NCBI GenBank assembly: GCA_963816145.1
Contig: CAWFJP010000014.1
Location: forward strand, 192,001-256,000
DNA from: an uncultured delta proteobacterium
Lineage (GTDB): Bacteria > Desulfobacterota > Binatia > UBA9968
Direction: 5' to 3'
DNA: 64,000 nt
The position numbers and the translations under genes were made by a program. This document shows, piece by piece, positions 4,049 to 52,100 of the stretch (position 1 is the stretch's first letter; every line of letters starts with the position of its first letter). The notes beneath the pieces were generated by a model. The model made no database searches. It had not been told where the DNA came from and saw only the letters and a program-made list of their open reading frames with translations.

Positions 4049-5047
4049 TTATTTCAGCCCCAGACTCCTGACGAAGCCGCTCTCGTCCAATTCCTTCACG
4101 ATACTGTCGTCGAGAATTTCTTCCACCTTGACGTCCTTGACCTTGGGATTGTCGCGGGCGGTAAAGTCGATCAGGGTTTTCCAGCCGCGGTTGACCGGGT
4201 AGGGGACTTTAGCGCGGATCTTGTTCACGTAGATGTCGTAGGCGACTTCCAGGATTTCGTCGTCGTTGACGCCGCCGTGGCTGGCCAGCAATTTTTTCGA
4301 CAGCGGTTTGTTTTCTAGGTTTACCTTGATCGCTTCGAGGTAGGCTTTCATGAAGCTGACAACCACCGGTCTCTTGGACTGCATGAACCGGCGCGTGGTG
4401 GCGACGCCGTTGAACGGGAAGTCGCCGCCGAGTTTCGAGATATCGATGAGCGTGTTGTAGCCCTGGCGCGCAAGCAGTTGCGCGAAGGAGTTGCCAAGAC
4501 CCATGGCTGCCGCGGAGATTTGGCCGGCCTGGAGCGCCGTGTAAGTTTCGCGCAGGCCGCCGGTGTAGATGACTTTCACGTCTTTGTCCGGCACCAGCCC
4601 ATGATGGCTGAGGCCGAAGCGCGCCCAATAGTCTGTGTTGGCGCCGCGCCGGGTGACGCCCACCGCTTTGCCTTTGAGATCATTCGGTTGCTTGATCTCG
4701 GGGCGCGACATGATTTGCGCCGCCATGCTGTTGATGATGGTGGCGATGAACACTGCGTCGACGCCCGCGGCTTTGCCGAAGAGCACGGCGGAGCCACCGA
4801 TCTGGCCGATCTGCACGTCGCCCGAGATCATCGCCTGGATGATTCTTGTGCTGCCGCCGAGATAGACTGTGCTGACATCGAGGCCGTACTTTTCGAACAA
4901 GCCGGTTTTTGACGCGGTGATCAGGGTCAGTTCGGACGGGCTGATCGATGAATAACCGGCGACGAGTTTTTCCGCGGCGGAACCATGCCGCGTCAGGGCA
5001 GTGCTGAGTATGACGAGGGCGACGAACGCAATGGATAGTTGTCTCAT
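4049..5047 (-). CDS. ABC transporter substrate-binding protein, NMT1/SsuA/TauA type
   Basis: Signal peptide, GLFEKYGLDV, DLKGKAVGVTRRG, C-terminal DDSIVKELDESGF. Confidence 0.85.
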   Translation of the reverse strand: MRQLSIAFVALVILSTALTRHGSAAEKLVAGYSSISPSELTLITASKTGLFEKYGLDVSTVYLGGSTRIIQAMISGDVQIGQIGGSAVLFGKAAGVDAVFIATIINSMAAQIMSRPEIKQPNDLKGKAVGVTRRGANTDYWARFGLSHHGLVPDKDVKVIYTGGLRETYTALQAGQISAAAMGLGNSFAQLLARQGYNTLIDISKLGGDFPFNGVATTRRFMQSKRPVVVSFMKAYLEAIKVNLENKPLSKKLLASHGGVNDDEILEVAYDIYVNKIRAKVPYPVNRGWKTLIDFTARDNPKVKDVKVEEILDDSIVKELDESGFVRSLGLK

Positions 5048-6161: not shown

Positions 6162-8075
6162 TCAGGTTTTTGCGCCAAGTGCCCGCGCGATATAATCGCG
6201 CCGAACCTTGGTGCGCGGAACTTTGCCGGTAAACCAGCTCCGCACATCGGCGTCGAGGCCGATGCCGTGCATGTAGTTGTACAACGCCTTGTTCAGGGCT
6301 GTGCCGAGGGCGTCGTGGTCGACGCCGATGGGGTCGAGGAAGCCGACGTCGTTTTTGGCGAACGAGATCTCCGGCAAAGGGACGAGCGTGACGCCGTATT
6401 GTTCGGGATGCTTGCCCACCGGTGAATGCACCGTGCAGGCAAAGCGGTGGAAGAAGCCTGACTGGATGCAGCCGGCTATGAACAATTGCCGGACATATTC
6501 GAGGGCATCAACCGTGTCTTGCACGGTTTGGGTCGGGAAGCCGTACATCAAATAGGCGTGGACGAGAATGCCGGCGTCGGAAAATGCGCGCGTGACTCTG
6601 GCGACTTGCTCGACGCTGACGCCCTTCTTCATTAAATTGAGCAGGCGGTCGGAGGCGACCTCGAGCCCGCCGGATACCGCGATGCAGCCGCTGTCGACGA
6701 GTTCTTGGCAGAGCTGCGGCGTGAAAGATTTCTCGAAGCGAATGTTGCCCCACCATGAAATGGCCAGCTTGCGTTTCTTGATCTCGGCGGCGAGTGCTTT
6801 CAAGGTTTTTGGCGGTGCGGCCTCGTCGACGAAATGAAATCCGGTCTGTTGGGTTTCGGCGATGACGGTCTCGATGCGGTCGGCCAGGGTTGCGGCGGCG
6901 AGGTCGTCGTAGCGCGAGATGTAGTCGAGGGTGACGTCGCAGAAACTGCACTTTTTCCAGTAGCAGCCGTGGGCGACGGTGAGTTTGTTCCAGCGGCCGT
7001 CGGACCACAGCCGATGCATCGGGTTGAGCATGTCCAGTAGCGACAAGTAGCCGTCGAGCGGCAGTCCGTCCCAAGTCGGCGTGCCTACTTCCGCGAATGG
7101 AATGTCGGGCTCGCGTGCGTCGATGTAGCGGATTGTGGATTTATCGGCAGTGCGCCGGAAGGTGCGAACCAAATTGCTTTCGGGCCGGTTGCCGCCCAGA
7201 TATTCTAATAACGCCAACAGCGGCCGCTCGCCGTCATCCAAGGTGACATAGTCGAAATAATCGAACACCCGCGGCTCGCTCAGTTCGCGCAGCTCGGTGT
7301 TGACATAGCCGCCGCCGAGCGCGGTGATTATCGATGAATCGCGGGCTTTGATCGCCTGGGCGATGCGAAACGCGGCGTACACCGAGCCTGGGAACGGCAC
7401 CGAGAGCAGCACCAGATTCGGCGCATGGCGCGCCAGCGCCGCCAGCGTTAGGTCACGCAGTGTGCTGTCGACCAGATTGAGCGGCGCGGCCAGCGCTTCG
7501 GCGAGGGGATCGAAGGTCGGTTGGCTTTGCGCTAGAGACTCGGCATAGCGGACGAACTCAAAGCGCGGGTCGACGGCCTCGCGCAACACGTCGGCGAGAT
7601 CATCGAGGTAAAGAGTCGCCAAGTGTTTAGCGCGGTCTTCTATCCCAAGCGCTCCGAACGCCCAAGCCAGTGGATCGTCGGTGCCGCCTTGCAGATAAAA
7701 ATCTATTGGCTTGAAGCGCGGCCCTTCGGGAAGGAATTGCCGTCCACAAATGCGATGCGCCAGGGTCGGATCACGCCCCTGCAGGAACGCGATGGCGGGG
7801 GTGATCGTCGAGAGATAACGGTCGAATTTCTGGAGAAATGCTTTGGCGATCGGCGAACGCTTGCGCTGCGGGATCGCCTCGGCACGGTCCCGGATGGCTA
7901 ACAGCCCGTCAGTGGAAAAAAGCTTTAAGACTAGAGCCAATGCAAGATCTTCCTGCACAGCATCGAAACCCCGCGAGCGCAAGAAGCCGGTGAGATATGC
8001 CGTTGACGGATATGGCGTATTTAGCTGAGTCATCGGTGGGATTAGCGACAGCACGCGAATAGAATTGGTCGACAT
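6162..8075 (-). CDS. B12-binding-domain radical SAM protein
   Basis: PPMTQLNTPYPSTAYL N-terminus, GCYWKKCSFC (CxxxCxxC), FHFVDEA, SGGLE, AYLMYGFP. Confidence 0.9.
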   Translation of the reverse strand: MSTNSIRVLSLIPPMTQLNTPYPSTAYLTGFLRSRGFDAVQEDLALALVLKLFSTDGLLAIRDRAEAIPQRKRSPIAKAFLQKFDRYLSTITPAIAFLQGRDPTLAHRICGRQFLPEGPRFKPIDFYLQGGTDDPLAWAFGALGIEDRAKHLATLYLDDLADVLREAVDPRFEFVRYAESLAQSQPTFDPLAEALAAPLNLVDSTLRDLTLAALARHAPNLVLLSVPFPGSVYAAFRIAQAIKARDSSIITALGGGYVNTELRELSEPRVFDYFDYVTLDDGERPLLALLEYLGGNRPESNLVRTFRRTADKSTIRYIDAREPDIPFAEVGTPTWDGLPLDGYLSLLDMLNPMHRLWSDGRWNKLTVAHGCYWKKCSFCDVTLDYISRYDDLAAATLADRIETVIAETQQTGFHFVDEAAPPKTLKALAAEIKKRKLAISWWGNIRFEKSFTPQLCQELVDSGCIAVSGGLEVASDRLLNLMKKGVSVEQVARVTRAFSDAGILVHAYLMYGFPTQTVQDTVDALEYVRQLFIAGCIQSGFFHRFACTVHSPVGKHPEQYGVTLVPLPEISFAKNDVGFLDPIGVDHDALGTALNKALYNYMHGIGLDADVRSWFTGKVPRTKVRRDYIARALGAKT

Positions 8076-8850: not shown

Positions 8851-9741
8851 ATGGAAATTATCCGCGGCAACTTGAGCGATATCAAAGGCATCCCGCCGAG
8901 CGGTTTATGCGTCGGTGTGCACCGCGCCGGCGCGGTGCATAAGAAGATGGTCGCCAAGCATGGCGACGGTCTGGCGGTCTGGTCGCTTAGGCCCGATCTC
9001 GATTTCATCGCGTTCAAAAAGGAAGGCCTTGGTGAACAGGGGATTCGCTCGACCAACGACATGGCATCGATCGACGGCAATGAAAAACTGATTTATGGCG
9101 TGCGCGGCGCGCCGCCCGAGGTGCGCGAAACGGCGCGCGAGAAAGGTCTGACGCTGCTCGCCGACGCGACCTGTCCCTTTGTTTTACAGCAGGAAGAGGC
9201 CGAGATCGAGCTACTCAACGACGGGCGCCACTTGGTGTTACTCAGTAGTCCTACCCATCACGGCGTGCCGAGGATTCAAGGCATCGCGCGGACCAAGGGT
9301 AAAGAAGTCTTTATCGTCGAGCATGAGGACCAGGTCGACTCGATCCATCTGACTCGATTCGAACCCATCGGCGTGATCGTGCAGACGACTTTCTGGGTGG
9401 AAACCTACAAGAAAATCGTCGCCCGTTTACTGGAGCATTTCGCCAACGTGCAAATTCGCAACACTTCCTGCATCGACTCGCTGCAGCGCCTTCCCGAAGT
9501 CGAGAAGCTCGCCAAGCAAGTCGAAGCGATCGTTATTTTTGGCTGGACCGAAGGGATGACCACCCGGATGCTCGAAGTGGCGCGCGCTTTCAATCCGAAT
9601 GTTTACAAAATCGAGAAGGTGGACGATCTCCGGCTCGACTGGCTGCGCGGCAAGGAAACGGTCGGTATCATCGGTGCCAACGAGACACCCGAATGGATGA
9701 TGAACGATGCCATCGAGCGTATGAAGAGCATGGTGGCCTGA
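8851..9741 (+). CDS. Divergent IspH/LytB-fold [4Fe-4S] reductase (probably not a functional HMBPP reductase)
   Basis: Three cluster Cys retained (SGLCVGV, DATCPFV, NTSC) plus QTT, but the VHN, AHG, HPE, SSN and GAS motifs are altered; RBS AAGGAGGA. Confidence 0.8.
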   Translation: MEIIRGNLSDIKGIPPSGLCVGVHRAGAVHKKMVAKHGDGLAVWSLRPDLDFIAFKKEGLGEQGIRSTNDMASIDGNEKLIYGVRGAPPEVRETAREKGLTLLADATCPFVLQQEEAEIELLNDGRHLVLLSSPTHHGVPRIQGIARTKGKEVFIVEHEDQVDSIHLTRFEPIGVIVQTTFWVETYKKIVARLLEHFANVQIRNTSCIDSLQRLPEVEKLAKQVEAIVIFGWTEGMTTRMLEVARAFNPNVYKIEKVDDLRLDWLRGKETVGIIGANETPEWMMNDAIERMKSMVA

Positions 9742-9744
9742 ACC

Positions 9745-10026
9745 GTGCCGAAGATCACTTTCATTCCAGCGGAAAAATCGTTCGATGTCGCGCCAGGCAC
9801 GACCATCCTGGTTGCCGCAGTGCAAAACGGATTGCACCTGCGCCATGATTGCACCGAAGCGGTTTGCGGCACCGACCGGGTGAAGATCCTTTCCGGTGCG
9901 GAGCAGCTGAGTGCAATAACCGACAACGAGGAATTGACCCTCGAGATGATGAACGCGGGGCCCAACGAAAGGCTGGCTTGCGTCGCACGGATCGCCGGCG
10001 ATGTGATTGTCGAAATGCCCGAATAA
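9745..10026 (+). CDS. 2Fe-2S ferredoxin-like protein, third ligand Cys replaced by Asp
   Basis: HDCTEAVCGTDRV...ERLAC; GTG start 3 nt after the upstream stop. Confidence 0.85.
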   Translation: MPKITFIPAEKSFDVAPGTTILVAAVQNGLHLRHDCTEAVCGTDRVKILSGAEQLSAITDNEELTLEMMNAGPNERLACVARIAGDVIVEMPE

Positions 10027-10045: not shown

Positions 10046-11152
10046 ATGCCGGCACCTGTGGCAATTCTAGCAAAACCGGACGATCACCGCGGCATTCTCA
10101 CCATGGCAGAAGCGGTCGACGCGATGCTCGATGCATTTCGCAATTGGGCGAATGACCCGCTGGTGGCGGAGCTGCGGCGACGCACGCACACGCCGAAGAA
10201 CGTGCGCATTACCCTACATCAGGGCGCGGCACCGGCTTATGGCACGACGGGCATCATGACCCATGCGGAGCTTGTGCGCATTTTCGGCGACAAACAAAAA
10301 TATCCGCGCCGCGGCCGCCCGGTTCTGGTGCTTTATGACAGCGACACGGCGGCTTTGAAGCTCATTCTCGTCGGCGAAATGCATCCCAAGGAGCTGCCGG
10401 ACGCCAACAGCGTGGTGGCGATGCCGACGGCCTGTGCCTCGATGGTCGGCACCGATTTGCTCGCGCGCAAAGACTGCCGGGTCGCCGGGGTTTTCGGTGC
10501 TGGAGATCAAGCGAAGATGCATCTCCTGGCGCTCACCTGTATTCGCAAGTCGATTGACAAGGCGCGCGTCTTCAGTCCGACCCGCGAGACTCGCGAAAAC
10601 TTTGCCGCGGAAATGAGCGCCGTATTGGGCATCGCAGTGACCGCCGCGGAGAGCGCTGCAGATGTTGTCGACGGCGCCGACGTAATCCTGTGCGCGACCA
10701 ATTCAAATGTTCCGGTATTCGACGGCAATTGGCTGGTTCCCGGCCAACATGTCACCTCGATCGTTTCGAGCAATATCGGATTGAAAAAGCGCGGCCACGT
10801 CATTGAAATGCGCCGCGAGATCGACGAGAGGACTCTGGAGCGGGCCGATATTTTGCTGACCAACGTTTGGGGACAGGAAGAGCTGGACAAGACCGCGGTG
10901 TTCTGGGAAGCCTCTCTCGATCGCCCAAACATCGCGGGCAAGATTGTCGATAGCGGAGAGCTCATCCGCGGTGAAAAAAGCGGACGAACCGACGCTGCTC
11001 AAATTACCTATTTCAAAAACTGCGCGTTTTGGGGTATTGGCGCGGCGGCCATCGGCGGACTGATCTATGACAAACTCTTGCAGCAGCGCAAGGGTTTGGC
11101 GCTCGACTTCAACCCGCATGAGTTCTATGACGATACTTGGGCGGAGGATTAG
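10046..11152 (+). CDS. Ornithine cyclodeaminase/mu-crystallin family protein
   Basis: GVFGAGDQA Rossmann motif, VFSPTRE, ADVILCATNS, GRTDAAQITYFK; RBS AAGGAG. Confidence 0.85.
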   Translation: MPAPVAILAKPDDHRGILTMAEAVDAMLDAFRNWANDPLVAELRRRTHTPKNVRITLHQGAAPAYGTTGIMTHAELVRIFGDKQKYPRRGRPVLVLYDSDTAALKLILVGEMHPKELPDANSVVAMPTACASMVGTDLLARKDCRVAGVFGAGDQAKMHLLALTCIRKSIDKARVFSPTRETRENFAAEMSAVLGIAVTAAESAADVVDGADVILCATNSNVPVFDGNWLVPGQHVTSIVSSNIGLKKRGHVIEMRREIDERTLERADILLTNVWGQEELDKTAVFWEASLDRPNIAGKIVDSGELIRGEKSGRTDAAQITYFKNCAFWGIGAAAIGGLIYDKLLQQRKGLALDFNPHEFYDDTWAED

Positions 11153-11218
11153 ATTTGTTTGAATGAGCGGGAAGCCTGGGTTACAGCGCGAAGATGATCG
11201 CAAGGAGGATTGGATAGC

Positions 11219-12124
11219 ATGCGCGGTATAACACCGAGACGAGAACAGGGCATGGCCGATCCGGTGTTGGCCGAGATGGTTCATGCCACCGGGGCGACGG
11301 AGTCGCGTCACTACGCGGCGGTGAAGCCGATCATTCAAGCCTATCGCGCCAGTTGGGTGAAGTTGGCGCCGTTTCGCGACGGGCCGGTCAACCCCCAGCG
11401 CGTGCCGGTCGACGATCCGGCGGCGATGACGGCGCAGATCAAGGCGAAGGCGAGCGAGTGGGGCGCCAACTTGGTCGGCGTCTGCCGCCTGCAGCCGCAT
11501 ATGATCGATCTCGGCTCGGAAGTGTCCCACGAGTTTGTCATCGCCTGCTGCGTCGCCGAAGACTACGAAAAGGTGCTTCAAGGCCCGGACGCCGTCGAGG
11601 AAGAGGCGATGCGGACGTACGCGAAGTGCACCGAGATATCCACTGCGTTAGCTGCCTACGTCCGTGAGATGGGATATCCCGCCATCGCGCACCACAACGG
11701 CGCCAGCGAGGTGCAGGCGATCCCAATTTTCTACCAAGTCGGATTCGGCGAGCTCGGCCGGCATGGCAGTCTGATCAATGAAAAGTATGGCGCGAGCTTT
11801 CGCCCTGGTTTCGTCACCACCGATTTGCCGCTCGTCGAAGACCAGCCGCGAGAGTTCGGCGTTCAGGACTTCTGCATGAACTGCAACGTTTGCCAGCGCA
11901 ACTGCCCGGGCGACGCGATCCCGCAAGACCATGTCATGACCCATGGCATCAAGCGCTGGCTGATCGATTTGGAGAAGTGCTATCCGTATTCCCGCCTGCG
12001 CGAGGAGTATTGCCATCTCTGCGTCGACGTCTGCCCGTACAACGTGAAGTCGCATCCGGACACGTACAAAGCGCTTATGAAAGAGCGTAAACAGGTTGGC
12101 TATAAGACACCAAAGACTTATTGA
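11219..12124 (+). CDS. Reductive dehalogenase-like cobalamin/2x[4Fe-4S] protein (short, no Tat signal)
   Basis: WGANLVGV, GFGELGRHGSLI, VTTDLPL, CMNCNVCQRNCP and C-x10-CHLCVDVCP. Start uncertain (11163 with a frameshift, 11219 or 11252). Confidence 0.75.
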   Translation: MRGITPRREQGMADPVLAEMVHATGATESRHYAAVKPIIQAYRASWVKLAPFRDGPVNPQRVPVDDPAAMTAQIKAKASEWGANLVGVCRLQPHMIDLGSEVSHEFVIACCVAEDYEKVLQGPDAVEEEAMRTYAKCTEISTALAAYVREMGYPAIAHHNGASEVQAIPIFYQVGFGELGRHGSLINEKYGASFRPGFVTTDLPLVEDQPREFGVQDFCMNCNVCQRNCPGDAIPQDHVMTHGIKRWLIDLEKCYPYSRLREEYCHLCVDVCPYNVKSHPDTYKALMKERKQVGYKTPKTY

Positions 12125-12403: not shown

Positions 12404-12955
12404 ATGCCCTATATCAAGACGATTCCGCCCACAGAGGCGACCGGAAAACTGAAGGAAGTCTATGAAACGGCGGGCGGCCCTTCGGCGGCGCGCGGCAAGG
12501 TCGCGATGGTGCGCCAGGTGCAAAGCCTCAATGCCGACGCGCTCGCCGCCTGGAGCGATCTTGGCGCAGCGATCATGCACGGCCCGTCGCGCCTGAGCAG
12601 GCGCCAGCGCGAGATGATCGCCACGGTGGTGTCGGCGACCAATCATTGCAGCTATTGAACGACTGCGCACGGAGAGGCTCTCCGTAGCGAAACCCACGAC
12701 GATCCGTTCGTCAAAGCGATTAAACAGGATTACACCAAGATTGATTTAACGGCAGCGGAGCGGGCCATGCTCGATTACGCGGTGAAACTGACGGTGACGC
12801 CGTCGAGCGTAACGGCAGAAGATGTTTTGATATTGCGCGCTCATGGGTTCGACGACCGCGATATACTCGACATCATCTACGTTGTTTGTTTGTACAATTT
12901 TAACGACCGGCTGGCCGACGCGACCGGCATCAAAGGGCATGATTTTCTTAGTTGA
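12404..12955 (+). CDS. AhpD/carboxymuconolactone-decarboxylase-like peroxidase, predicted selenoprotein (CxxU), 183 aa
   Basis: ORF-track pieces 12404-12658 and 12767-12955 are in frame across a single TGA (12656-12658): REMIATVVSATNHCSY-U-TTAHGEALR...AERAMLDYAVKLT...YNFNDRLADATG. TGA occupies the second Cys of the AhpD CxxC..H motif. Confidence 0.88.
12667..12688 (+). promoter_or_regulatory. Bacterial SECIS-like hairpin
   Basis: GC-ACGGAGA-GGC-TCTCCGT-A-GC; G-containing loop about 17 nt after the UGA. Confidence 0.7.
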
Positions 12956-12994
12956 CATCGTCCGCCGCCGGGTGTGACGCACAGGTTGGCCATT

Positions 12995-13876
12995 ATGCCG
13001 TTCAGCTACGCCGAGTTCATGACTCAACTGATGGCGCCCAAGCCCTATCCAGCGCAGGCGGTTTTTACCGCGCCCCGGATAACGGCACTGCGCAAGCCGG
13101 TTGCAGAATGCACCCTCGGTGTCTTTACCAGCTGTGGCGCACAGCTGAAGGACGACCGACCGCTGGCCGAGACCAACGATCTTTCCTACCGGCTGCTGCA
13201 CCGTGACGTAGCGCTCTCGGAGCTGAAGATCAATCACATGACGCCGTCGCGCAAGTGGGCGCTGGAGGACTTGAACGTCGCTTATCCGCGCGACCGGCTG
13301 ATCGAGTTGGAGGCGGAGGGGGTTTTCAAGAAGCTTGCGCCCAGCGCCGTTTCCATGGTCGGTTCGATCACGTTGTACACGGAGCTTTTGAGCGATGCCG
13401 TGCCGCGGATCAAGCAAGAATTCGACCGGCAGGAAGTCGACCTGGTGCTGATCGTGCCGTTTTGACCGCAATGCCATCGGTCCGTGGGACTGATCGCAAG
13501 AGGACTGGAAGCGAGAGGTTTGCCGACCGTGAGCCTGAGCACCGTATGGGACATCACTCTGGCGGTAAAACCGCCGCGGCCATGCTTCCTGGATTTCCCG
13601 ATCGGCTGTCCGGTCGGCAAGCCGGGCATGCCGGAATTGCAGCGGCAAATACTGAAAGCGGTCTTCTCCCAGGCGGAGAAATTTACCGGTGATTGGGCGC
13701 TGCATGAGCTGCCCTTCCAGTGGGCAAAGGATGGCAGCCGTCATTGGGAGGAAGAGCTCAAGGATCTCTACCGGCGAGGCCTCGGCACGGTGGAGGCGCA
13801 TGTTGCGGATCATCGCCGTCGCGGTGAGGCGCTGATCGGTCAAGAGGAAGCGTTTGCGCTGCGCTGCAATTGCTAG
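12995..13876 (+). CDS. Glycine/sarcosine/betaine/proline reductase selenoprotein B (GrdB/PrdB)-like protein, UxxC, about 293 aa
   Basis: Pieces 12974-13465 and 13484-13876 are in frame across TGA 13463-13465: VDLVLIVPF-U-PQCHRSVGLIARGLEARGLPTV...KPPR. N-terminal LRKPVAECTLGVFTSCG and DLNVAYPRDRLIELEAEG match this family. Confidence 0.88.
13472..13498 (+). promoter_or_regulatory. Bacterial SECIS-like hairpin
   Basis: TGC-C-ATCGGTCC-GTG-GGACTGAT-C-GCA; G-first loop about 18 nt after the UGA. Confidence 0.7.
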
Positions 13877-13933
13877 CGTCCTGTCCACCCACTGACCGCC
13901 AGCCAATGAACGTATGAAAAGGAAGGTGCTGCG

Positions 13934-14719
13934 ATGATCGAACTCTATCACAACGACATGTCGGTGTGCGCGCAAAAGGTGCGTTTTACCCTGGCCGAGA
14001 AGAAACTTGCTTGGGACAGCCACCATATGAATCTGCGCGCCGGCGATCAGCAAAAGCCGGAATATTTGAAACTCAATCCCAACGCCCTGGTGCCTACCCT
14101 GGTCGACGATGGCACCGTTATTATCGAATCCACCGTGATCAACGAATATCTCGATGACGCGTATCCCGACCTGCCGCTGCGTCCGGCGGCCGCGACCGCG
14201 CGGGCGCGCATGCGTCTATGGACCAAACAGTTGGATGAAGGCGTTCACGCCGCGACCAGCGTGGTCAGCTCGGCGATCGCCTTTCGCTATCAAAAGCTCG
14301 CCATCGGCATGGAAGCGCTCGAAGAATTTCACAGGAAGATGCCCGACCCGGTGAAGCGCGAGAAGAGCTGGGAGAATGTCACCAAGGGCGTCGAGTCGCG
14401 CTTTTTCCCCGAGGCGGTCATGCGCTTCGACAAATTGCTTGGCGACATGGAGTCGGCCTTGAAAGACTCTCCGTGGCTCGCCGGCAAAGAGTTCTCGCTG
14501 GCCGATATCGGCTACGCGCCCTATGTTACCCGGCTCGATCACCTGCAACTGCAATTTCTCTGGGACAAGCGGCCGCACATTCCAGAATGGTACGATCGGC
14601 TGCGCGAACGGCGCGCGTATGGTGAGGCGCTGGAAAACTGGTTCAATCCCGCCTATTTGCCGCTGATGAAGGAAAAAGGATCGGAAGCGCGAGCCCGGGT
14701 CAAAGAGATCGTCGGCTAA
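13934..14719 (+). CDS. Glutathione S-transferase family protein
   Basis: SVCAQKVR, YLKLNPNALVPTL, IESTVINEYLD, WLAGKEFSLADI. Confidence 0.92.
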   Translation: MIELYHNDMSVCAQKVRFTLAEKKLAWDSHHMNLRAGDQQKPEYLKLNPNALVPTLVDDGTVIIESTVINEYLDDAYPDLPLRPAAATARARMRLWTKQLDEGVHAATSVVSSAIAFRYQKLAIGMEALEEFHRKMPDPVKREKSWENVTKGVESRFFPEAVMRFDKLLGDMESALKDSPWLAGKEFSLADIGYAPYVTRLDHLQLQFLWDKRPHIPEWYDRLRERRAYGEALENWFNPAYLPLMKEKGSEARARVKEIVG

Positions 14720-15806: not shown

Positions 15807-15866
15807 GTCTAACGTTTTCGGTGAGAGGCGCGAATTTCAGCGTCCTTCTCGACCCAATGGTTAGGT
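15807..15866 (-). other. attC site (60 bp)
   Basis: Minus strand ACCTAAC-CATTGGGTCGAGAAGGACGC...GCGCCTCTCACCGAAAAC-GTTAGAC; the mazF stop TAA lies within the RYYYAAC inverse core. Confidence 0.85.
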
Positions 15867-16199
15867 TCCGATAATCTCGTTCAATCCTTCAACAACCTGA
15901 GCCAATTCCTCTGGAGACGCCCGACCCATCACCTTTCCAATCCGTTCGACCGCGAGTGTTCGGATCTGGCTGATTTTCACCCACGACTTTTTCGGTAGCC
16001 CCCGTACATGAAGTTCGAGTGTTAAGGGGAACCCAGCGCGTTGAGGTTGACTCGTGAGCGCAACAGCAATCACCGTTCCGGAACGTTCATTGAAAACGTC
16101 CTGGCTTAGAATCAAAACCGGACGTAATCCGGCCTGTTCACGTCCCCGTACCGGATTCAAGTCGGCCCAGCGGATTTCACCCCTCAGTATTCGGGCCAT
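15861..16199 (-). CDS. mazF: Type II toxin, PemK/MazF family endoribonuclease
   Basis: [33 protein letters not shown]. Confidence 0.93.
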
Positions 16200-16426
16200 T
16201 CCGCTAGATCCTCGGACAGCCCTTCTTCTGCAAGCGCCTTCTCAAAGGTAGGATCGAGCTTGGCGCACTCTTGGGCTAGACGACTTTTCTCAAGCCGCGC
16301 GAGTTTCTCCGCAACAGCTTCCTCGATGGCCTGACTACGGTTGGGAAAGACTTGTTTCTTAACCAGTTGATCGAGACGAGCGAGGGTAGATTCATCTAAA
16401 GAAATTGCAACCTTGGATCTTGCCAT
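16184..16426 (-). CDS. Ribbon-helix-helix (CopG/NikR-like) antitoxin
   Basis: KVAISLDE...NRSQAIEEA; overlaps the toxin start. Confidence 0.88.
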
Positions 16427-16637: not shown

Positions 16638-17594
16638 TCAGCGCTTTGCCCCATTGGCGACCTTCATCTCGGCGTCCACTTCGTCCTCGAATGCGCGACG
16701 CTTCGACGCAACAAACTGCCGGTAGCCCTCGGGGTCCATCCACGCGTTGACGCCCTCGTTCACGGCGCGCTTGCGCTTCGCCTCCATGCCGAAGTACTCG
16801 GTGTGGTGTGCAAGCCAGATGTCCGGCTTGAGCATCTCCCAGGTATGGAGCGTCCGCCGGTAGTCGTCCTCGACGCCGGGGTACGAGGGATCTCGTGCCG
16901 CGACCCGGTAACCCGGATTGAACCCGCCGCCGTCTGGAAACACGACGGCGTAGGCCTTGCCAGTCTCGAAGAGTGTTGTGGTCCACGTCGTCGCACCGCG
17001 TGTATGGCCGGGCGTATGGAGAGCCGTGAGCAGCACGTCACCGAGCCGGACCTGGACGCCATCGCGGAGCACACGGTCGACCTTCACGGGCGGCTGGCCC
17101 ATGACCTGCCAGTCCTTGCCGTAGTGAAAGTCGCTCTTGCCTCCGTCCTCAACCATCGCGACGTCTTCCTGCATGATCGCGACCTGCGCGCCTGACAACT
17201 GCTTCAGGTAGGCGAACGCGCCCGCGTGGTCGGAATGGCCATGGCCATTGATAATGATCTTGATGTCTTCAGGCGTGAAGCCGAGCTTGCGAATCGACCC
17301 GACGATCATCGGGCCGGATTTCGGCGTGCCTGTATTCAGCAGGATGTGGCCCTCGCGTGTCGCGAACAGCCACGAGCTCAACCCCTGTGTACCGACGAAG
17401 TACAGTGGTCCGACGATATGGATCGGCTCCGCAGGTTCGTCCCACTTCAGGTATTTCGTGGCGAGTTCGATGAACAGCTTGTTGTCGTTCGCGAGCTGTT
17501 CCTTCGTCGGGGCGTTCGGCGGCAGCTCCTGCGCACCGGCCGAGAGCACTAGCGAGGCTGCGAGCGAAACGGCAATGAACCAACGCTTCTTCAT
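16638..17594 (-). CDS. Subclass B3 metallo-beta-lactamase (FEZ/BJP/L1-like), secreted
   Basis: Signal peptide MKKRWFIAVSLAASLVLSAGA, PIHIVGPLYFVGT, HGHSDHAG (HxHxDH), TPGHTRG, DIWLAHH. Confidence 0.88.
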   Translation of the reverse strand: MKKRWFIAVSLAASLVLSAGAQELPPNAPTKEQLANDNKLFIELATKYLKWDEPAEPIHIVGPLYFVGTQGLSSWLFATREGHILLNTGTPKSGPMIVGSIRKLGFTPEDIKIIINGHGHSDHAGAFAYLKQLSGAQVAIMQEDVAMVEDGGKSDFHYGKDWQVMGQPPVKVDRVLRDGVQVRLGDVLLTALHTPGHTRGATTWTTTLFETGKAYAVVFPDGGGFNPGYRVAARDPSYPGVEDDYRRTLHTWEMLKPDIWLAHHTEYFGMEAKRKRAVNEGVNAWMDPEGYRQFVASKRRAFEDEVDAEMKVANGAKR

Positions 17595-17667
17595 GGCGAT
17601 GCTCTCCCTCGGCAGCAATCACTGCACCACCGGTTTCGAGGACGACTGCAATGCGGCGTCCAATGCC

Positions 17668-18618: not shown

Positions 18619-19650
18619 CTACCGCCCGGATTGCAAAGCCACTCGTTTCCTCGCTTCCGCCAGGTAGCCGTTTTCTTCGAGCGCTTTCACGACGCTCATG
18701 TTGATGGATTCGTTGACGTCGACTTGGCCGGCCTTGGGATTGACCCGGGCGATGAATCTTTGGATATTCTTCCACGCCGCCGGGTCCGGCGCGATGTCGA
18801 GGCTGGTCATCGAACGCACGGAAAGATACGAGGTCTCGGCATCCTCGTCGGTGGTCAGGCGCAGGTGTTTTTTCATAACCTCGGCGACTTCCCGTTTGTT
18901 GCGCGGATCGAGAATGTAAACGATGCCGTCGATCATGCCTTTGGTGAGGCGCATGATCAGGTCGGGAGAAGCGGCCAGTCGCTCAGCCCGTCCACAGATA
19001 CCCACAGTCTGCAGCGGGATGCGCAGATCCGACGAGTTGACCAACGAGCGCATGCCGCCGCGCTTGGCCACCGCCGCGGAGGGCAAGGTCACGACCGCGG
19101 CATCTATGTTCGCACTGAGCAGTGCTTGGACGATGGTCGGTTCATCGCCGATGACGCGAATTTTCATGCCCAACTTGTCGGGGTCGAGGCCGAGACCGTC
19201 CAGGACCATCATAGTCTGGAGCCAGAATCCGCCGCCGATGCTTTGCACTCCGATAGTCTTGCCGCGCAGCGCCGCCACCGAGTCAATATCCTTGCGCACC
19301 ACCAGTTCGCGCGAAATCCCCTTGATCGGGAACGCGACGCAACCGATCTTCACCCCGGCCGACACGCCGCTCAGTACATTGCCGACCGACGGTAGAAAAA
19401 TCGGCACCTCGCCCGACACCAGCGCCGCCAAACTGATCTGCGCGTTACGCACCTGCAGCAAGCGCGCGTCGATCCCGTGCTTTTGATAGAGCCCTTTGTC
19501 GATCGCCACCCAATAGGGGCCGATGGTTTCGTTATGGCCGCCGTAGGCCATCAGCACAACGTCATCGGCGTGGGCTCGCCCTAGGAGCGAGAAAAACAGA
19601 ACGATGGAAATGCATCGACAAAGTCTCCAGGGTAGAAGCGCCAAATACAT
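18619..19650 (-). CDS. ABC transporter substrate-binding protein, NMT1/SsuA type
   Basis: Signal peptide, YWVAIDKGLYQKHGID, LRGKTIGVQSIGG, VVKALEENGY. Confidence 0.82.
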   Translation of the reverse strand: MYLALLPWRLCRCISIVLFFSLLGRAHADDVVLMAYGGHNETIGPYWVAIDKGLYQKHGIDARLLQVRNAQISLAALVSGEVPIFLPSVGNVLSGVSAGVKIGCVAFPIKGISRELVVRKDIDSVAALRGKTIGVQSIGGGFWLQTMMVLDGLGLDPDKLGMKIRVIGDEPTIVQALLSANIDAAVVTLPSAAVAKRGGMRSLVNSSDLRIPLQTVGICGRAERLAASPDLIMRLTKGMIDGIVYILDPRNKREVAEVMKKHLRLTTDEDAETSYLSVRSMTSLDIAPDPAAWKNIQRFIARVNPKAGQVDVNESINMSVVKALEENGYLAEARKRVALQSGR

Positions 19651-39278: not shown

Positions 39279-41143
39279 GGCGTGAGAAAAAATCTCCAGC
39301 GGCTCATGTTCGTAGTATATATAGGAGCATAGTGAAGTTCAGAGCAAGAGCCGAGGTTTTATAATCAGAGTCGCACAGGAACCGAAGCGGAGGAGGAGAG
39401 GGAAGAGTGGGGATAGAACAGGAAAGGTTACCCGGATGTGAATCGGCGGTTGGAAGTGAAGCGCAAGCCAAGCAGAGGTCGGCGGCCAGGATGGGCAAGC
39501 CGCGTTACGAAGTGATCGACCGCGAGCAGCTGTGTTGGCGGCAGATCGATGTCGAGCGGCTGATCGGGGCCGACCATCCAGCCCGGGCGGTGTGGGAGTT
39601 TATCGGGCGTCTTGATTTAAGCGCATACCAGCAAGAGGCACGAGCGGTAGAAGGCCAAGCGGGACGGCCGGGATGGGAGCCGCGGTTACTGATCAGCCTG
39701 TGGGTGTATGGGTACAGCAAAGGAGTCGGATCAGCGCGAGCGATCGAAGAGTTATGTGAATGGGAGCCAGCCTACCAGTGGCTGACGGGATCAAGAGTGG
39801 TCAATGCCCATACGCTATCGGACTTTCGGGTCAAGCACGACAAGGCGCTCAATGGGCTGTTTGTGCAGGCCTTGGGGCTACTGAGTACCGATGGATTGAT
39901 CACGCTGGAACGAGTGATGCAGGACGGGACCAAGATCAGAGCCAAGGCAGCAGCGGATAGTTTTCGTCGCCAAGAGCGAGTCGAAAAAGCGCTCAACGAA
40001 GCCAAGGAGCAAGTGGCCGCGCTCCAAGCGCAGAGCGAAGAGGAAACCAGCCGGCGCATGGCCAAGGCACGCCAGCGAGCGGCCCGCGAGCGCCAGGAGC
40101 GGCTAGAGCAAGCGCTCAAGGAATTTGAGCAACAGGAAAAACAAGACAAGGACAAAGAGCAAAGACGAGTGAGCACGAGCGATCCCCAAGCGCGAGTGAT
40201 GAAACAGCCTGGGAGTGGGTATGCGCCGAGCTACAATGTGCAGATTGACACCGATGCAAAGAACGGTGTGGTGGTGGCGGTGGGAGTGGTGCAAGCGGGC
40301 AATGACTTCGAGCAATTGGCGCCTGGGATTGACCGAGTGCTACAGAACCAAGGCGAGACTCCCAAAGAAGTGGTCACCGACGGCGGCTATGTCAGTAAAG
40401 AGACGATCGTGGCGATGAAGGAGCGCGAAATCGAGTACATCGCGCCGTGTGTCGATGAGGTGGGCAAGGGACAGAGTTCCTATGACAACCGCGGCGTGAG
40501 CGCCGAGTATCAAAGCTCCCAGTTTATCTACGATGCTCAGAGCAATAGTTATCGTTGTCCGCAGGGAAAGATCCTGAAGTATGAAGGCAAAGAAGAGCGC
40601 CACCTGCAGCTGAGCTACCGGTATCGAGCGCAGAGATCGGACTGCCAGGGATGTCCGATGAAGAGCCAGTGTTGTCCTGGGAATCGAGTGACGGGGCGGT
40701 CGGTGCATCGCAGCGAAGAGTTGGCCGAAGTGGCCGAGTTTCGTCAGAAGATGGAGACACAACGAGCGCGCGAGATCTACAAAACCAGAGCCCAGGTGGC
40801 CGAGACGCCCAATCTGTGGATCAAGGCGAAGTTTGGGCTACGCCAGTTCAGCGTGCGCGGGTTAGCCAAGGTGGGGATGGAAGCGCTCTGGGCGTGTCTC
40901 ACCTACAACATCCGAGTGTGGATGCGGCTATGCTGGAGAAAAGCAGTGGTGGTGCAGCCTGCGTAGAGAAAAGGGAGAAACACGTCGTGTAGAAGAGAAA
41001 ATCGGCCAGTTTTGAGCCGCTCAACAGCGGTTCAAAGTTTCGCATCCGAATAATTACGGCAAAGATGAGTTTTTTCCAAAAAAGAAAAAACGCCGAGGCG
41101 TAGGATCAATCCAGATTACGATAAATCAATTTTTTCTCATGAC
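39279..41143 (+). mobile_element. IS1182-family insertion sequence (1865 bp)
   Basis: 15-bp imperfect IRs GGCGTGAGAAAAAAT / ATTTTTTCTCATGAC; flanking direct repeat CGCAG (39274-39278, 41144-41148). Confidence 0.85.
39407..40966 (+). CDS. IS1182-family DDE transposase
   Basis: DHPAR, GRPGWEPRLL, TLSDFR, QDGTKIRA, SDPQAR, PSYNVQ, TDGGY, CPQG, CQGCP, FGLRQFSVRG; start may be 39491. Confidence 0.92.
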   Translation: MGIEQERLPGCESAVGSEAQAKQRSAARMGKPRYEVIDREQLCWRQIDVERLIGADHPARAVWEFIGRLDLSAYQQEARAVEGQAGRPGWEPRLLISLWVYGYSKGVGSARAIEELCEWEPAYQWLTGSRVVNAHTLSDFRVKHDKALNGLFVQALGLLSTDGLITLERVMQDGTKIRAKAAADSFRRQERVEKALNEAKEQVAALQAQSEEETSRRMAKARQRAARERQERLEQALKEFEQQEKQDKDKEQRRVSTSDPQARVMKQPGSGYAPSYNVQIDTDAKNGVVVAVGVVQAGNDFEQLAPGIDRVLQNQGETPKEVVTDGGYVSKETIVAMKEREIEYIAPCVDEVGKGQSSYDNRGVSAEYQSSQFIYDAQSNSYRCPQGKILKYEGKEERHLQLSYRYRAQRSDCQGCPMKSQCCPGNRVTGRSVHRSEELAEVAEFRQKMETQRAREIYKTRAQVAETPNLWIKAKFGLRQFSVRGLAKVGMEALWACLTYNIRVWMRLCWRKAVVVQPA

Positions 41144-43033: not shown

Positions 43034-44083
43034 CTACTTTACGCCGGCGGCCTGAAGGTACTTGAGTTCGACGAAGCGCTCGGCTGCGGGCAGGGGCTGC
43101 TTCAGCAATCCGGCTTCATTCATGAACGCGATGACTTGAGACAGCCCTTTGACATTGACCTCGCCTTGGATCGGTAGGACATTTTTCTCCGGTTCGAAAA
43201 ACAGCGCGAGGGTTTTCTCGGCAATGTCGGCGGGGGTATCGGTGGTTTCGAGGATGGTTTTGATGACCGCCTTGCGGTTTGCCGGATTGCGGATGAATTT
43301 GAAGGTCGCGCTCAGGCCGCGCAGGTAACGCACGCTAGTTTCACGATTTTTCTCGGCCCAGGAGCGGCGCGCTGCCGTCACTGTATAGAGAAAGTCCGGA
43401 ACCGCGTCGTTGGAAATGCCGAGGACGCGGAATCCTTCTTTTTGCGCGATCAAGTCCTGAGGCTGGCCAAGTGGGACTGCGTCGCACTCACCCCGCTTAA
43501 GGCAATTCCAGCGCGTCGGCGTGCCTTCAATGGTTTTGACGCGAAAGTCGCCGCTATTGACACCATGCATCGCGAGTAGTCTGCGTGTCGAAATCGAAAT
43601 GGTTCCAGCCTCATCAGCCAAGCCGATCAGTTTGCCTTTGAGATCGGCGAAGGTTTTGATTTCCGGTTTGACCACCAGGCTGTAGATCGGGTTGGTGAAC
43701 TCAGCGGCGATGGCGACCGCGTCGGAACCGTTGAGCGCGGCGCGAATCAAAAAGGGCACGGCGACATGGGTTATGTCGACGGTGTCGTCATGGAGCGCGT
43801 CGATCATCTTGTCCGACCCGCCGGGTATTGGGATGATGATTTTGAAATTCAAACCGGCTCGGCGAAAAAAGCCTTCGCGCTCGCCAACGAAAATCGGCAG
43901 CGAGAAGATGCTCTTGGCCGCGGAAATCGCTTGGCCGTAGCGCAGCGCGATGGATTGCGCGGCGGTTTCAAATCCAGTGATCGTGCAGAATGCGAGGACG
44001 AGCGGCAAGGTGAGCCAACTCTTAAAAAAACAGACGGCCTGAATTTCCTGCTGCGCGGGAATTACGGTTGGGGACGGGGACAT
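43034..44083 (-). CDS. ABC transporter substrate-binding protein, NMT1/SsuA type
   Basis: EGFFRRAGL, IYSLVVKPEIKTFADLKGK; start uncertain. Confidence 0.82.
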   Translation of the reverse strand: MSPSPTVIPAQQEIQAVCFFKSWLTLPLVLAFCTITGFETAAQSIALRYGQAISAAKSIFSLPIFVGEREGFFRRAGLNFKIIIPIPGGSDKMIDALHDDTVDITHVAVPFLIRAALNGSDAVAIAAEFTNPIYSLVVKPEIKTFADLKGKLIGLADEAGTISISTRRLLAMHGVNSGDFRVKTIEGTPTRWNCLKRGECDAVPLGQPQDLIAQKEGFRVLGISNDAVPDFLYTVTAARRSWAEKNRETSVRYLRGLSATFKFIRNPANRKAVIKTILETTDTPADIAEKTLALFFEPEKNVLPIQGEVNVKGLSQVIAFMNEAGLLKQPLPAAERFVELKYLQAAGVK

Positions 44084-47091: not shown

Positions 47092-48096
47092 ATGAAGGTT
47101 TCGCGAACCATCAATATTATCGTCGGTCTACTGTGGGTCGTTGTCGGCATCGTCGATCATGCTGCCGCCCAGGAAAAAGTTCGTTTGTCGCATAGCGCCT
47201 TGGAAACCAGCAATTCGGTGTGGTTTATCGCCCAGGAGCTAGGTTTCTACAAGAAATACGGCGTGGATTCCGAGCTGCTTTACATTCCCAGTACGACGAC
47301 CAGCTTAACGAGTCTCTTGGCTGGGGATGTTCACGTCGCCAATGTGTCGGGAGGCGCGGTGGCGAGCGCGGTGTTGGCGGGCGCGCAGATCGCCCTTGTG
47401 TCGTGCTATCTCAATTCGCTGCCTTATGAATTGGTCGTCAACGAATCGATAAAATCGGCCGAAGAACTCAAAGGCAAGAGCGTCGGTATCAGCCGTCTGG
47501 GGAGCGCGTCCGATGTGGCGGCGCGGGCGCTTCTGCGCGGTTTGAACTTGGAACCGGACAAACAAGTGCCGATCCTTCAAGTCGGCGGTTCGTCCGAAAG
47601 GGCGGCGGCGTTTCGCACGGGGCGCATCGCCGGATTCCCGTCGCCGCCGGGGATCGTTCACTTGACCAAGGGGATGCCGTTTCGGATTCTCATCAGCACG
47701 GCGGATTTCAAACAGCGCTTCGAGTTTCCCTATATTTGCGCGGCGACCACGCGCGACTATCTGCAAAAAAACCGCGACATCGTCAGAAGGGTGATCATGG
47801 CCCATATCGAAGCGGTGCACTTCGTCAAAACCCGCAAGGACGAGAGCAAAAAGATCATGTCCAAATACGCCCGCACGACCAACGAGGACTATTTGGAATC
47901 GGCTTATACGGCGAGTTCTAAACTCTACGATGCGGTGCCGCTGGTGACTCGGCCCGGCGTCGAAATTCAAATCCGCGAAGCGATCGCGACGGCGCGCAAG
48001 CCCGGCGCCCAGCTGCGCTTCGATGACATGGTTGATGAAAGTATCGTTCGTGAACTCGACAAGAGCGGGTTCATCGATAAGATTTACAAGCGCTAG
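47092..48096 (+). CDS. ABC transporter substrate-binding protein, NMT1/SsuA type
   Basis: Signal peptide, GFYKKYGVD, LKGKSVGISRLGSAS, DESIVRELDKSGFID. Confidence 0.85.
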   Translation: MKVSRTINIIVGLLWVVVGIVDHAAAQEKVRLSHSALETSNSVWFIAQELGFYKKYGVDSELLYIPSTTTSLTSLLAGDVHVANVSGGAVASAVLAGAQIALVSCYLNSLPYELVVNESIKSAEELKGKSVGISRLGSASDVAARALLRGLNLEPDKQVPILQVGGSSERAAAFRTGRIAGFPSPPGIVHLTKGMPFRILISTADFKQRFEFPYICAATTRDYLQKNRDIVRRVIMAHIEAVHFVKTRKDESKKIMSKYARTTNEDYLESAYTASSKLYDAVPLVTRPGVEIQIREAIATARKPGAQLRFDDMVDESIVRELDKSGFIDKIYKR

Positions 48097-51122: not shown

Positions 51123-52100
51123 ATGACGACAAAACCTTCCGATAAACCTATGACCCGTTCGATCGGTAGAGACACGATCCGTTCCCGTTTGGTGCTCGAA
51201 GTGGCTGCCGAGATGATCGAGCAAGAGGGTTGGCCCAACCGTCAGGCGCGAGTGAGCTTGCGGCCTCAGGGCGCGGAGGAGTGGGCGGTGAACATGATCG
51301 CCAGCGATGGGCCGGCGGCGCTGGATATGGTCGCGCGCGGCGAGATGCAACTGGCGATTAGTAATCCGGCGATGTATTTGGCGTTGGCGCTGCGCGGCAC
51401 GGGGCCATACAAAAAGGCTATTCCCTTGCGCGCCATCACCGTCATTCCGTCACCGGATCAATTGGCTTTTGCCGTTACTGAAAAGACCGGCTTGAAGTCG
51501 CTGCACGAGATTCGCGAGCGGCGTGTGCCGCTGCGGGTGTCGGTGCGCGGCCAGCGGGATCACGCGCTGCATCCGATCACCCATGAAGTCTTGAAGGCTA
51601 TGGGTTTCTCCCTTGACGATATCGTTTCCTGGGGCGGGCAGGTGCGCTACGATGACGGCTTGCCGAGCAAAGACAACCGCTTCGGCGCGATGCAGCGCGG
51701 CGAGGTCGATATGATCATCGACGAAGCGGTGCGCGGCTGGGCCAACAGTGCGCTCGATGCCGGCATGCGCATCCTGCCGCTCGAGGAAAGTGTCTTGGCG
51801 AAAATGGAAGCGCTCGGCCTGCGTCGCGGCATTATGCCGATGGCGCGCTATCCAAAGTTGGGTAAAGATTTACCAACGTTGGATTTCAGCGGCTTCGCTG
51901 TTTATACGCACGCCGATGTGCCCGATTCAGTCATCACATCGATCTGCGCGGCCCTGGAAGCGCGCAAGGAGCGCATCGGCTGGCAGGAGCCAGGGCCGCT
52001 GCCGGTCGAAAGCGGTTGCCGCGACACCGCCGACGGGCCGCTGGTGATTCCACTGCACCCGGCGGCGGAGAAATTTTGGCGCGGGCAAGGGTATTTGTAG
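51123..52100 (+). CDS. TAXI-family TRAP solute-binding-like protein
   Basis: C-terminal IPLHPAAEKFWRGQGYL, LRAITVIPSPD. Confidence 0.65.
   Translation: MTTKPSDKPMTRSIGRDTIRSRLVLEVAAEMIEQEGWPNRQARVSLRPQGAEEWAVNMIASDGPAALDMVARGEMQLAISNPAMYLALALRGTGPYKKAIPLRAITVIPSPDQLAFAVTEKTGLKSLHEIRERRVPLRVSVRGQRDHALHPITHEVLKAMGFSLDDIVSWGGQVRYDDGLPSKDNRFGAMQRGEVDMIIDEAVRGWANSALDAGMRILPLEESVLAKMEALGLRRGIMPMARYPKLGKDLPTLDFSGFAVYTHADVPDSVITSICAALEARKERIGWQEPGPLPVESGCRDTADGPLVIPLHPAAEKFWRGQGYL

Follow-up and report, generated by a model that had tools for sequence, protein, structure and literature searches.

A probable selenoprotein gene in an uncultured Binatia bacterium from an uncharacterised PrdB-like clade ending in C-x-C

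We analysed a 64,000-nucleotide (nt) stretch of DNA from an uncultured delta proteobacterium of the lineage Binatia (contig CAWFJP010000014.1, positions 192,001 to 256,000; referred to below as the window and numbered from its first letter), and in particular a PrdB-like gene that is interrupted by an in-frame TGA codon. The observations as a whole are best explained, with reasonable probability, by a genuine selenoprotein that belongs to a clade of the GrdB/PrdB superfamily and performs selenol/thiol chemistry outside Stickland fermentation, perhaps in a detoxification setting. The parts of this explanation differ in strength. That the UGA at residue 157 is read through as selenocysteine (Sec) is very likely on comparative sequence grounds; with similarly high confidence the protein is not a Stickland reductase; and its placement in an uncharacterised clade, related to PrdB and GrdB but identical with neither, is well supported by profile scores and phylogeny.

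The ATG at 12995, the TGA at 13463-13465 and the TAG at 13874-13876 lie in one frame, and translation with TGA as Sec (U) yields 293 residues that read ...LIVPF-U157-PQC160-HRSVGLIAR... around the codon and end in ...FALRCNC. This translation confirmed the motif VPF-U-PQC-HR that an earlier note on this DNA had assigned to TGA 13463. Under genetic code table 11 the frame is split into two open reading frames (ORFs), 12974-13465 (163 aa) and 13484-13876 (130 aa). The first of these was mechanically started at a GTG; since homologue alignments begin at MPFSY or MPYSF, the ATG at 12995 is preferred as the likely start. A word-indexed protein search returned 301 homologues at E <= 0.001, and among the 120 matches listed the proteins measure 267-314 aa and share 50-59% identity with the query over 89-100% of its length, so that they are single proteins spanning the TGA. 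Those with Cys in place of Sec (Cys forms) are about 292-294 aa long, and the two-protein arrangement which the earlier note had named as grounds for abandoning its call is therefore not what the homologues show. In each of the 17 homologues aligned, the residue opposite U157 is Cys, and F156, C157 (the Sec position), P158, C160, H161, R162 and C291-N292-C293 are invariant in all 18 aligned sequences, as are H269 and H273.

A scan using one genome per species gave 49 loci (L-numbers below), of which 40 carry TGC or TGT at the aligned codon, eight carry TGA and one (L048) has a frameshift. The TGA loci are labelled as Binatia or 'Deltaproteobacteria' (L001, L002, L038 and L040), Acidobacteriota (L033, L036 and L042) and Patescibacteria group (L019); the same TGA codon is thus present in eight other genomes of at least two phyla, with the conserved sequence intact on both sides, and these together with the window gene make up the nine TGA forms considered here. 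Past the TGA, differences from the window gene at codon positions 1/2/3 number 31/11/54 (L040), 22/15/63 (L002) and 23/17/62 (L001), with the same pattern upstream of it, and this third-position excess implies that the stretch past the TGA diverges as coding sequence does. An exhaustive search of cluster representatives further recovered several split database entries, some stopping at ...PF (residue 155-156) and others starting with V/M-GLIAR (residue 164), a pattern to be expected of Sec genes cut by mis-annotation. With the TGA at the invariant Cys of full-length homologues and with conserved flanks, the idea of a hidden selenoprotein put forward in the earlier note was borne out.

Downstream of the UGA lies a hairpin resembling a selenocysteine insertion sequence (SECIS; Table 1). 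Its core, AUCGGUCC-GUG-GGACUGAU at 13476-13494, is also the core of the minimum-energy fold, and the 8-bp stem begins 11 nt past the UGA. The spacing from UGA to loop is 18 nt, against 17 nt in the adjacent AhpD-like gene (UGA 12656-12658; 9-bp hairpin 12667-12688, loop 12676-12678), so the near-equal spacing already pointed out for these two neighbours holds. The hairpin carries weight because of its distribution, not because of folding statistics: the stretch CAUCRGUCCGUSGGACUGAUCG is almost invariant, synonymous positions included, in 9/9 TGA forms and occurs in 0/40 Cys forms. Between groups the TGA forms are only ~55% identical as proteins, yet this stretch is kept almost base for base. 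The 30 nt after the codon fold with a mean of -14.3 kcal/mol in the nine TGA forms (range -12.0 to -17.3), the 8-bp stem and a GUS loop recurring in every one of them, as compared with a mean of -6.3 kcal/mol in the 40 Cys forms, none of which has this hairpin and two of which have unrelated hairpins of about -14.8 kcal/mol. Four of the TGA forms have A-U in place of a G.U pair through a G-to-A change that replaces Arg by Gln in the protein, which suggests that selection acts on the RNA structure in its own right. Overall, these comparisons support the view that the hairpin behaves as a conserved SECIS; it is a stem-loop directly downstream of the UGA with a small apical loop containing G, the form in which the SECIS criterion is worded in PMC1088965. 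The downstream hairpin that the earlier note had drawn is present, and it is conserved with the TGA forms only. An Rfam gathering scan of the whole window gave 0 matches and has no bearing on the SECIS either way.

The TGA might alternatively be a true stop. The locus could then be a pair of genes (12995-13465 and 13484-13876) or a pseudogene, or owe the TGA to a sequencing error, or its real gene could be an antisense ORF of 435 aa (12746-14053) that overlaps the PrdB-like gene. The division of the frame by table 11 into 163 and 130 aa, the existence of such halves as separate database entries, the length of the antisense ORF and the lack of Sec machinery in the window would all fit. We nevertheless hold this to be very improbable, given that (i) the same TGA and the same hairpin recur, with conserved flanks, in eight other genomes, (ii) the Cys forms are single proteins of 292-294 aa, (iii) the neighbouring AhpD-like gene displays the same signature of TGA plus hairpin at a CxxC-type site, and (iv) the antisense ORF had no match in the Pfam scan.

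As to the family, the best profile was the NCBIfam model of D-proline reductase PrdB (TIGR04483; E 2.4e-33, residues 26-245, 220/238 profile positions), against which the protein scores 115.6 bits where the equivalog cutoff is 300. The Pfam GRDB model (PF07355) gave 17.5 against a cutoff of 22, and the GrdF, GrdH, GrdB and TIGR01918 models gave 27-40 bits against cutoffs of 65-800 (for instance 27.7 against 65.45 for TIGR01918 and 40.5 against 800 for GrdF), the match to the GrdB-type profiles being confined to positions ~275-409. With GrdB, GrdF and GrdH the protein thus has in common the UxxC and a distant homology to their C-terminal half, and it differs from them in its length (293 aa, where the GrdB-type profiles have 431-435 positions) and in having no GrdA or GrdE nearby. 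With PrdB of the Clostridium/Acetoanaerobium sticklandii type it is homologous over residues 26-245 and shares the UxxC/CxxC-H-R centre, F-U-P-Q-C-H-R aligning with G-C-G-T-C-H-R of the canonical representative; some members use Sec. In contrast to PrdB, it falls below the equivalog cutoff, belongs to a separate clade and bears an extra C-terminal helix and C-x-C tail, while no PrdA pyruvoyl proprotein is encoded near the gene and the Pfam scans found no family of the PrdC type.

The superfamily comprises 1004 representative clusters at E <= 0.001, and by its profile scores canonical PrdB is a small part of this very large PrdB-like assemblage: among 81 longer representatives only P0207 (241 aa, 453 bits) passes the TIGR04483 cutoff, the others having at most 206 bits or no match (E <= 1e-30). 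In a maximum-likelihood tree, obtained by a quick search with P0207 as the one canonical PrdB and outgroup, 23 of 47 rows form a C-x-C-tail clade (Shimodaira-Hasegawa-like approximate likelihood ratio test 99) that is remote from P0207, with many lineages between. The window protein, which carries the motif F-[C/U]-P-x-C-H and a C-terminal extension ending in C-[N/A/D]-C, groups there with L040, L002 and L001 (support 100), and the clade has TGA forms at three or more points of the tree, interleaved with Cys forms. The label GrdB/PrdB-like given in the earlier note therefore reflects a real homology, and the profile scores and the phylogeny together place the protein outside either family. Hosts of the clade include Acidobacteriota, Vulcanimicrobiota/Eremiobacterota, Mycobacterium and Saccharopolyspora, none of which is known as a Stickland fermenter; most hosts are aerobes of soil or are facultative. 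No fused longer relative (514-2000 aa) was found at E <= 1e-20, which is weak evidence. Separately, in another branch of the superfamily, P0258 (805 aa) has a distant PrdB-like domain (591-762) fused to an acyl-CoA synthetase/AMP-ligase, a possible functional hint.

The terminal C-x-C is present at 48 of the 49 loci, the remaining one being cut by a contig end. Among 86 aligned superfamily rows it is found in 10, and these are the nearest relatives of the window protein. Canonical PrdB ends near residue ~245, which makes the extension of the clade ~48 residues long. The C-terminal CxC that had been singled out in the window protein is accordingly real and conserved, and not unusual as had been thought, being a hallmark of the whole clade. 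An AlphaFold2 model built on an 18-row alignment (predicted local distance difference test, pLDDT, 81; predicted template modelling score 0.84) has an alpha/beta fold that places U157-P-Q-C160-H-R at the junction of strand 150-154 and helix 158-173, which is where PrdB and GrdB have their UxxC/CxxC centre. A long predicted helix (250-275) is followed by a tail (277-293) that carries CNC at pLDDT <50.

Pfam scans of the 71 window ORF translations found neither PrdA, GrdE or GrdA nor another family of the glycine, sarcosine, betaine or proline reductases, and no proline racemase; ORFs of <80 aa, or interrupted by a TGA of their own as GrdA would be, could escape these scans. Proteins of the PrdA/GrdE/GrdA type were likewise missing from the neighbour ORFs of the 49 loci (cluster representatives of at least 140 aa), so that the absence of grdA, grdE and prdA noted previously for the window extends to the surroundings of its relatives. 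It is this lack of a pyruvoyl partner (PrdA or GrdE) near the clade that argues against D-proline or glycine reduction of the Stickland type. The B subunit of a genuine D-proline (or glycine/sarcosine/betaine) reductase, with its PrdA, GrdE or GrdA encoded elsewhere in the genome, would agree with TIGR04483 as the best profile (220/238 positions), with the conserved UxxC and with the name 'D-proline reductase (dithiol) PrdB' that the Joint Genome Institute (JGI) gives to many homologues. We see hardly any likelihood in it: the protein scores below the PrdB (115.6 against 300), GrdB-type and Pfam GRDB cutoffs, sits in a separate clade far from P0207, has a 48-residue C-terminal extension, is accompanied by no reductase partner among the 71 window ORFs or the neighbours of the 49 loci, and occurs in hosts which are not known to be Stickland fermenters.

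The chemistry that we propose for the clade is modelled on PrdB and GrdB, whose selenolate reactions are reportedly those treated by Kabisch and co-workers in 1999. UGA157 would be recoded as Sec with the help of the hairpin, presumably in a SelB-dependent manner as in the established bacterial mechanism. By analogy with PrdB/GrdB, the selenolate of U157 would act as a nucleophile on an electrophilic centre, and Cys160 would resolve the adduct to a selenenyl-sulfide that a dithiol re-reduces (PrdB/GrdB chemistry in the available parts of PMC13188914). The invariant C-x-C on its flexible tail is a candidate internal shuttle for this re-reduction. Without PrdA or GrdE there would be no pyruvoyl imine, from which it follows that the substrate should be intrinsically electrophilic or the protein a pure selenol/thiol oxidoreductase.

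In the window, the gene is part of a same-strand cluster that runs from a LytB/IspH-like gene to a glutathione S-transferase (GST) gene (Table 1), and begins 39 nt after the end of the AhpD-like gene. The genes around it recur in its closest relatives L002 and L040 alone, so that the context of LytB, ornithine cyclodeaminase (OCD) and reductive-dehalogenase (RDH)-like genes is, on this comparison, lineage-specific: L040 shares the LytB, RDH-like, PrdB-like and GST genes, and L002 the RDH-like, AhpD-like and PrdB-like genes. The RDH-like protein adjoins the PrdB-like gene in both (90-92% identity), and in L040 the downstream GST (86% identity) and the LytB-like protein (89% identity) are conserved. 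The TGA and hairpin of the AhpD-like gene are conserved in L002, the hairpin being identical to that of the window. Beyond the window, the pairing of AhpD-like and PrdB-like genes is seen in L002 alone; the two other close relatives, L001 and L040, and the remaining 46 loci lack it. The pairing resembles the grdA-grdB pair in that a CxxU gene adjoins a UxxC gene of the protein-B type on the same strand (operon examples in the available parts of PMC13188914), and departs from it in that the CxxU partner is of the AhpD/CMD fold (TIGR01926) and not GrdA.

Table 1. Positions in the window of the PrdB-like gene, its principal elements and the genes clustered with it
Feature	Position	Strand	Remarks
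LytB/IspH-like gene	8851-9741	+	Pfam/NCBIfam; 131-139 bits, below IspH cutoffs
2Fe-2S ferredoxin gene, small	9745-10026	+	Pfam scan
Ornithine cyclodeaminase (OCD)/mu-crystallin homologue	10046-11152	+	~104 bits vs NCBIfam cutoffs 408-417
Reductive-dehalogenase (RDH)/QueG-like gene, 4Fe-4S dicluster domain	11210..12124	+	TIGR02486 119.2 bits, below cutoff 160.35
AhpD-like (TIGR01926, CMD) putative selenoprotein gene, H-C-S-Y-U	12404..12955	+	143.6 bits vs cutoff 81.8
PrdB-like putative selenoprotein gene	12995..13876	+	293 codons + TAG stop; C-x-C-tail clade of GrdB/PrdB superfamily
UGA probably read as selenocysteine (U157), motif F-U-P-x-C-H-R	13463..13465	+	Cys at equivalent codon of homologues
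SECIS-like hairpin	13472..13498	+	core stem 13476-13483 / 13487-13494, loop GUG 13484-13486, three outer pairs
Cys291-Asn292-Cys293	13865..13873	+	C-terminal, on low-confidence, probably flexible tail
Glutathione S-transferase (GST) gene	13934..14719	+	directly downstream of PrdB-like gene

Across the 49 loci, OsmC-like genes (41.7-58.9 bits against a Pfam cutoff of 27.5) stand on the same strand in eight, which represent three phyla and are labelled Deltaproteobacteria (Binatia-like), Acidobacteriota and Actinomycetota (L043 and L047). In L002, L020, L024 and L031 the OsmC-like gene immediately precedes the PrdB-like gene, and in L025, L043 and L047 it immediately follows it. In L028 it lies 1.7 kb upstream, and the gene directly upstream of the PrdB-like gene there is peroxiredoxin (Prx)-like. 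Three of the eight (L002, L025 and L028) have TGA at the first catalytic Cys. In L002 (3356-5464), AhpD-like (HCSYU), OsmC-like (GFUMFS) and PrdB-like (FUPQC) genes follow one another on the same strand, each with TGA at its catalytic Cys, and make up a candidate three-selenoprotein operon. As a separate observation, the TGA OsmC-like genes of L025 (6947-7426; AAG-U-LTG) and L028 (3824-4300; TAG-U-MLG) are next to Cys-form PrdB-like genes, which means that Sec and Cys usage is mixed between neighbours.

The OsmC-, AhpD- and Prx-like neighbours, together with the GST, may tentatively point to a thiol/selenol relay that detoxifies hydroperoxides or electrophiles, and away from amino-acid fermentation. 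More speculatively still, the whole C-x-C-tail clade could be the selenol/thiol part of a so far unrecognised peroxide or electrophile relay with OsmC-, AhpD- and Prx-like proteins instead of a set of amino-acid reductases, a generalisation that we put forward as doubtful. Its members would then regenerate, or be regenerated by, the OsmC-/AhpD-/Prx-like proteins through the U/CxxC centre and the swinging CxC, and the L002 row AhpD-like(U)-OsmC-like(U)-PrdB-like(U) would represent the full form.

The gene clusters can also be read in terms of a catabolic reductase, which would cleave a C-N or C-X bond of a small molecule delivered by the neighbouring enzymes, using selenoether chemistry of the PrdB type and an activating group other than PrdA; its substrate might be, for example, an imino or cyclic amino acid produced by the OCD/mu-crystallin homologue upstream. 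The same-strand cluster of the window, which includes the OCD homologue, the ferredoxin and the RDH-like gene, is in keeping with this proposal, as are the persistence of the RDH-like protein beside the PrdB-like gene in L002 and L040, an Amidohydro_2 gene near the PrdB-like gene in ~20 loci (mostly directly downstream) and the closeness to the profile of D-proline reductase PrdB. However, the OCD homologue is missing between the LytB and RDH-like genes of L040 and was found in no other locus, it scores far under the NCBIfam cutoffs, the window has no proline racemase, and the neighbours differ by lineage, so that no single pathway emerges. On balance, we regard a catabolic role as rather unlikely.

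Returning to the explanation that we favour, namely a selenoprotein of non-Stickland, selenol/thiol and perhaps detoxifying function, a number of results weigh against it. (i) tRNA-Sec, SelA, SelB and SelD were not detected in the 64-kb window by an ARAGORN tRNA scan and Pfam scans (ARAGORN found no tRNA of any kind there), and the hairpin by itself is within chance for DNA of 58% G+C, as the 76-nt fold (z = -0.55) is equalled or bettered by 53 of 200 shuffles. (ii) No nucleotide-binding or flavin domain able to supply electrons was detected, and the placement of the C-x-C tail relative to U157 is unreadable in the model, as it falls in the low-confidence part. (iii) A PDB sequence-profile search gave two chance-level matches only (E 0.7-0.8) and Foldseek against the PDB gave 0 matches at E <= 0.001 (best template modelling score ~0.3); because no solved structure resembles the model, the chemistry rests on the analogy with PrdB/GrdB. 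(iv) The window contains no OsmC-like gene, 41 of the 49 loci have none in their flanks, and some of the eight that do are closely related to each other (L020/L024 and L043/L047). (v) The neighbours are otherwise very varied: the Amidohydro_2 genes of ~20 loci are mostly from Acidobacteriota; 12 Acidobacteriota loci (L004-L035) have a gene for a secreted CxxCH protein directly upstream, most of them with cytochrome c and pyrroloquinoline quinone (PQQ) dehydrogenase genes further downstream; and elsewhere the neighbours encode NMT1 binding proteins, luciferase-like monooxygenases or molybdenum hydroxylase subunits, the NMT1-type genes flanking the PrdB-like genes in the Vulcanimicrobiota/Eremiobacterota loci L003 and L010.

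A prediction of the complex between the L020 Cys-form PrdB-like protein (18-row alignment) and the adjacent OsmC-like protein (5-row alignment) scored 0.00 in both runs, which counts neither for nor against an interaction. The conserved CxxCH protein of the 12 Acidobacteriota loci, whose gene (e.g. L007:5325-5993) precedes the PrdB-like gene by ~600-700 nt, was considered as a hidden redox partner and rejected. It is ~190 aa long, matches no Pfam family, has a hydrophobic segment at its N-terminus and C-Y-S-C-H-K at its C-terminus, and is secreted and probably a small c-type cytochrome tied to the adjacent cytochrome c/PQQ-dehydrogenase genes. In an Acidobacteriota metagenome-assembled genome, a SelA gene (L-seryl-tRNA selenium transferase; Pfam E 4e-116) at L037:1428-3092 (-) precedes a PrdB-like gene of the Cys form by ~3-4.5 kb.

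Elsewhere in the window, a gene for a B12-binding radical SAM protein (6162-8075, -) is divergent from the LytB/IspH paralogue and ferredoxin (8851-10026, +). Just downstream of the cluster, a MazF/PemK-like toxin (15861-16199, -) and an upstream ribbon-helix-helix protein (16184-16426) form a type II toxin-antitoxin pair, and the gene at 16638-17618 (-) matches the NCBIfam model of subclass B3 metallo-beta-lactamases (299.5 against 240 bits), presumably as an environmental enzyme of that fold. The 64 kb also contain five NMT1/THI5-like periplasmic binding-protein genes (4049-5047, 18619-19650, 43034-44083, 47092-48096 and 51123-52100) and, at 39407-40966 (+), a DDE transposase (DUF772 + DDE_Tnp_1_6) that may mark an insertion sequence.

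Genes of this kind are already counted among the known selenoproteins. In their available parts, surveys of 2005-2008 list 'proline reductase PrdB/PR' with UxxC from non-Stickland settings (PMC1088965, PMC2398784, PMC1976440, PMC1794560) and place the PrdB family among the most abundant selenoproteins, with 42 genes in the Sargasso Sea and 235 selenoproteins and 110 Cys homologues in the Global Ocean Sampling data; they report members from the delta-proteobacterial symbionts of Olavius and from Anaeromyxobacter dehalogenans and Geobacter uraniumreducens. D-proline reductase (TIGR04483) and AhpD-like proteins (TIGR01926, CxxU) are listed as known selenoprotein families in the available parts of PMC9312934 and PMC13188914. 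The 'PrdB/PR' entries, as described in those portions of the surveys, are like the window protein in their UxxC, PrdB homology, Cys homologues and habitats where Stickland fermentation would not be expected; the likeness is one of description, not of sequence, and does not imply the same C-x-C-tail clade. The missing PrdA, the C-terminal CxC and the OsmC/AhpD neighbours are not discussed in the survey texts as far as these are available. In our literature search (supplements and subscription journals outside its scope), we found no account of a separate C-x-C-tail clade, of the absence of PrdA or of an association with OsmC/AhpD, and nothing on selenocysteine in Binatia; 'reductase selenoprotein B' and OsmC were mentioned together solely in survey papers listing both families. 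The earlier note overrated the novelty, as PrdB homologues had been tabulated as an abundant selenoprotein family from oxic seawater, Anaeromyxobacter and Geobacter (available parts of PMC1088965, PMC2398784 and PMC1794560).

As to names in databases, the ESM Atlas cluster of the Cys homologue P0007 is automatically termed 'putative glycine/sarcosine/betaine reductase selenoprotein B family protein', alongside the JGI name given above. Since the clade is without the partner that defines PrdB and does not pass as an equivalog, the label 'D-proline reductase PrdB', which is attached to hundreds of proteins, is probably wrong for its members in soil and other non-fermenting bacteria. Standard pipelines would moreover mis-annotate the PrdB-like gene, and likewise its AhpD-like neighbour, as two fragments, and a correct call matters for annotation. 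The link to proteins of the OsmC/AhpD/Prx type, several of them also selenoproteins, offers a testable functional lead for an abundant orphan redox family, and a functional test is practical as Cys-form orthologues are held by culturable Actinomycetota, among them Saccharopolyspora soli (L046). If true, a role in a peroxide or electrophile relay would re-assign the function of part of a 'PrdB' family that is counted among the most abundant in oxic environments.

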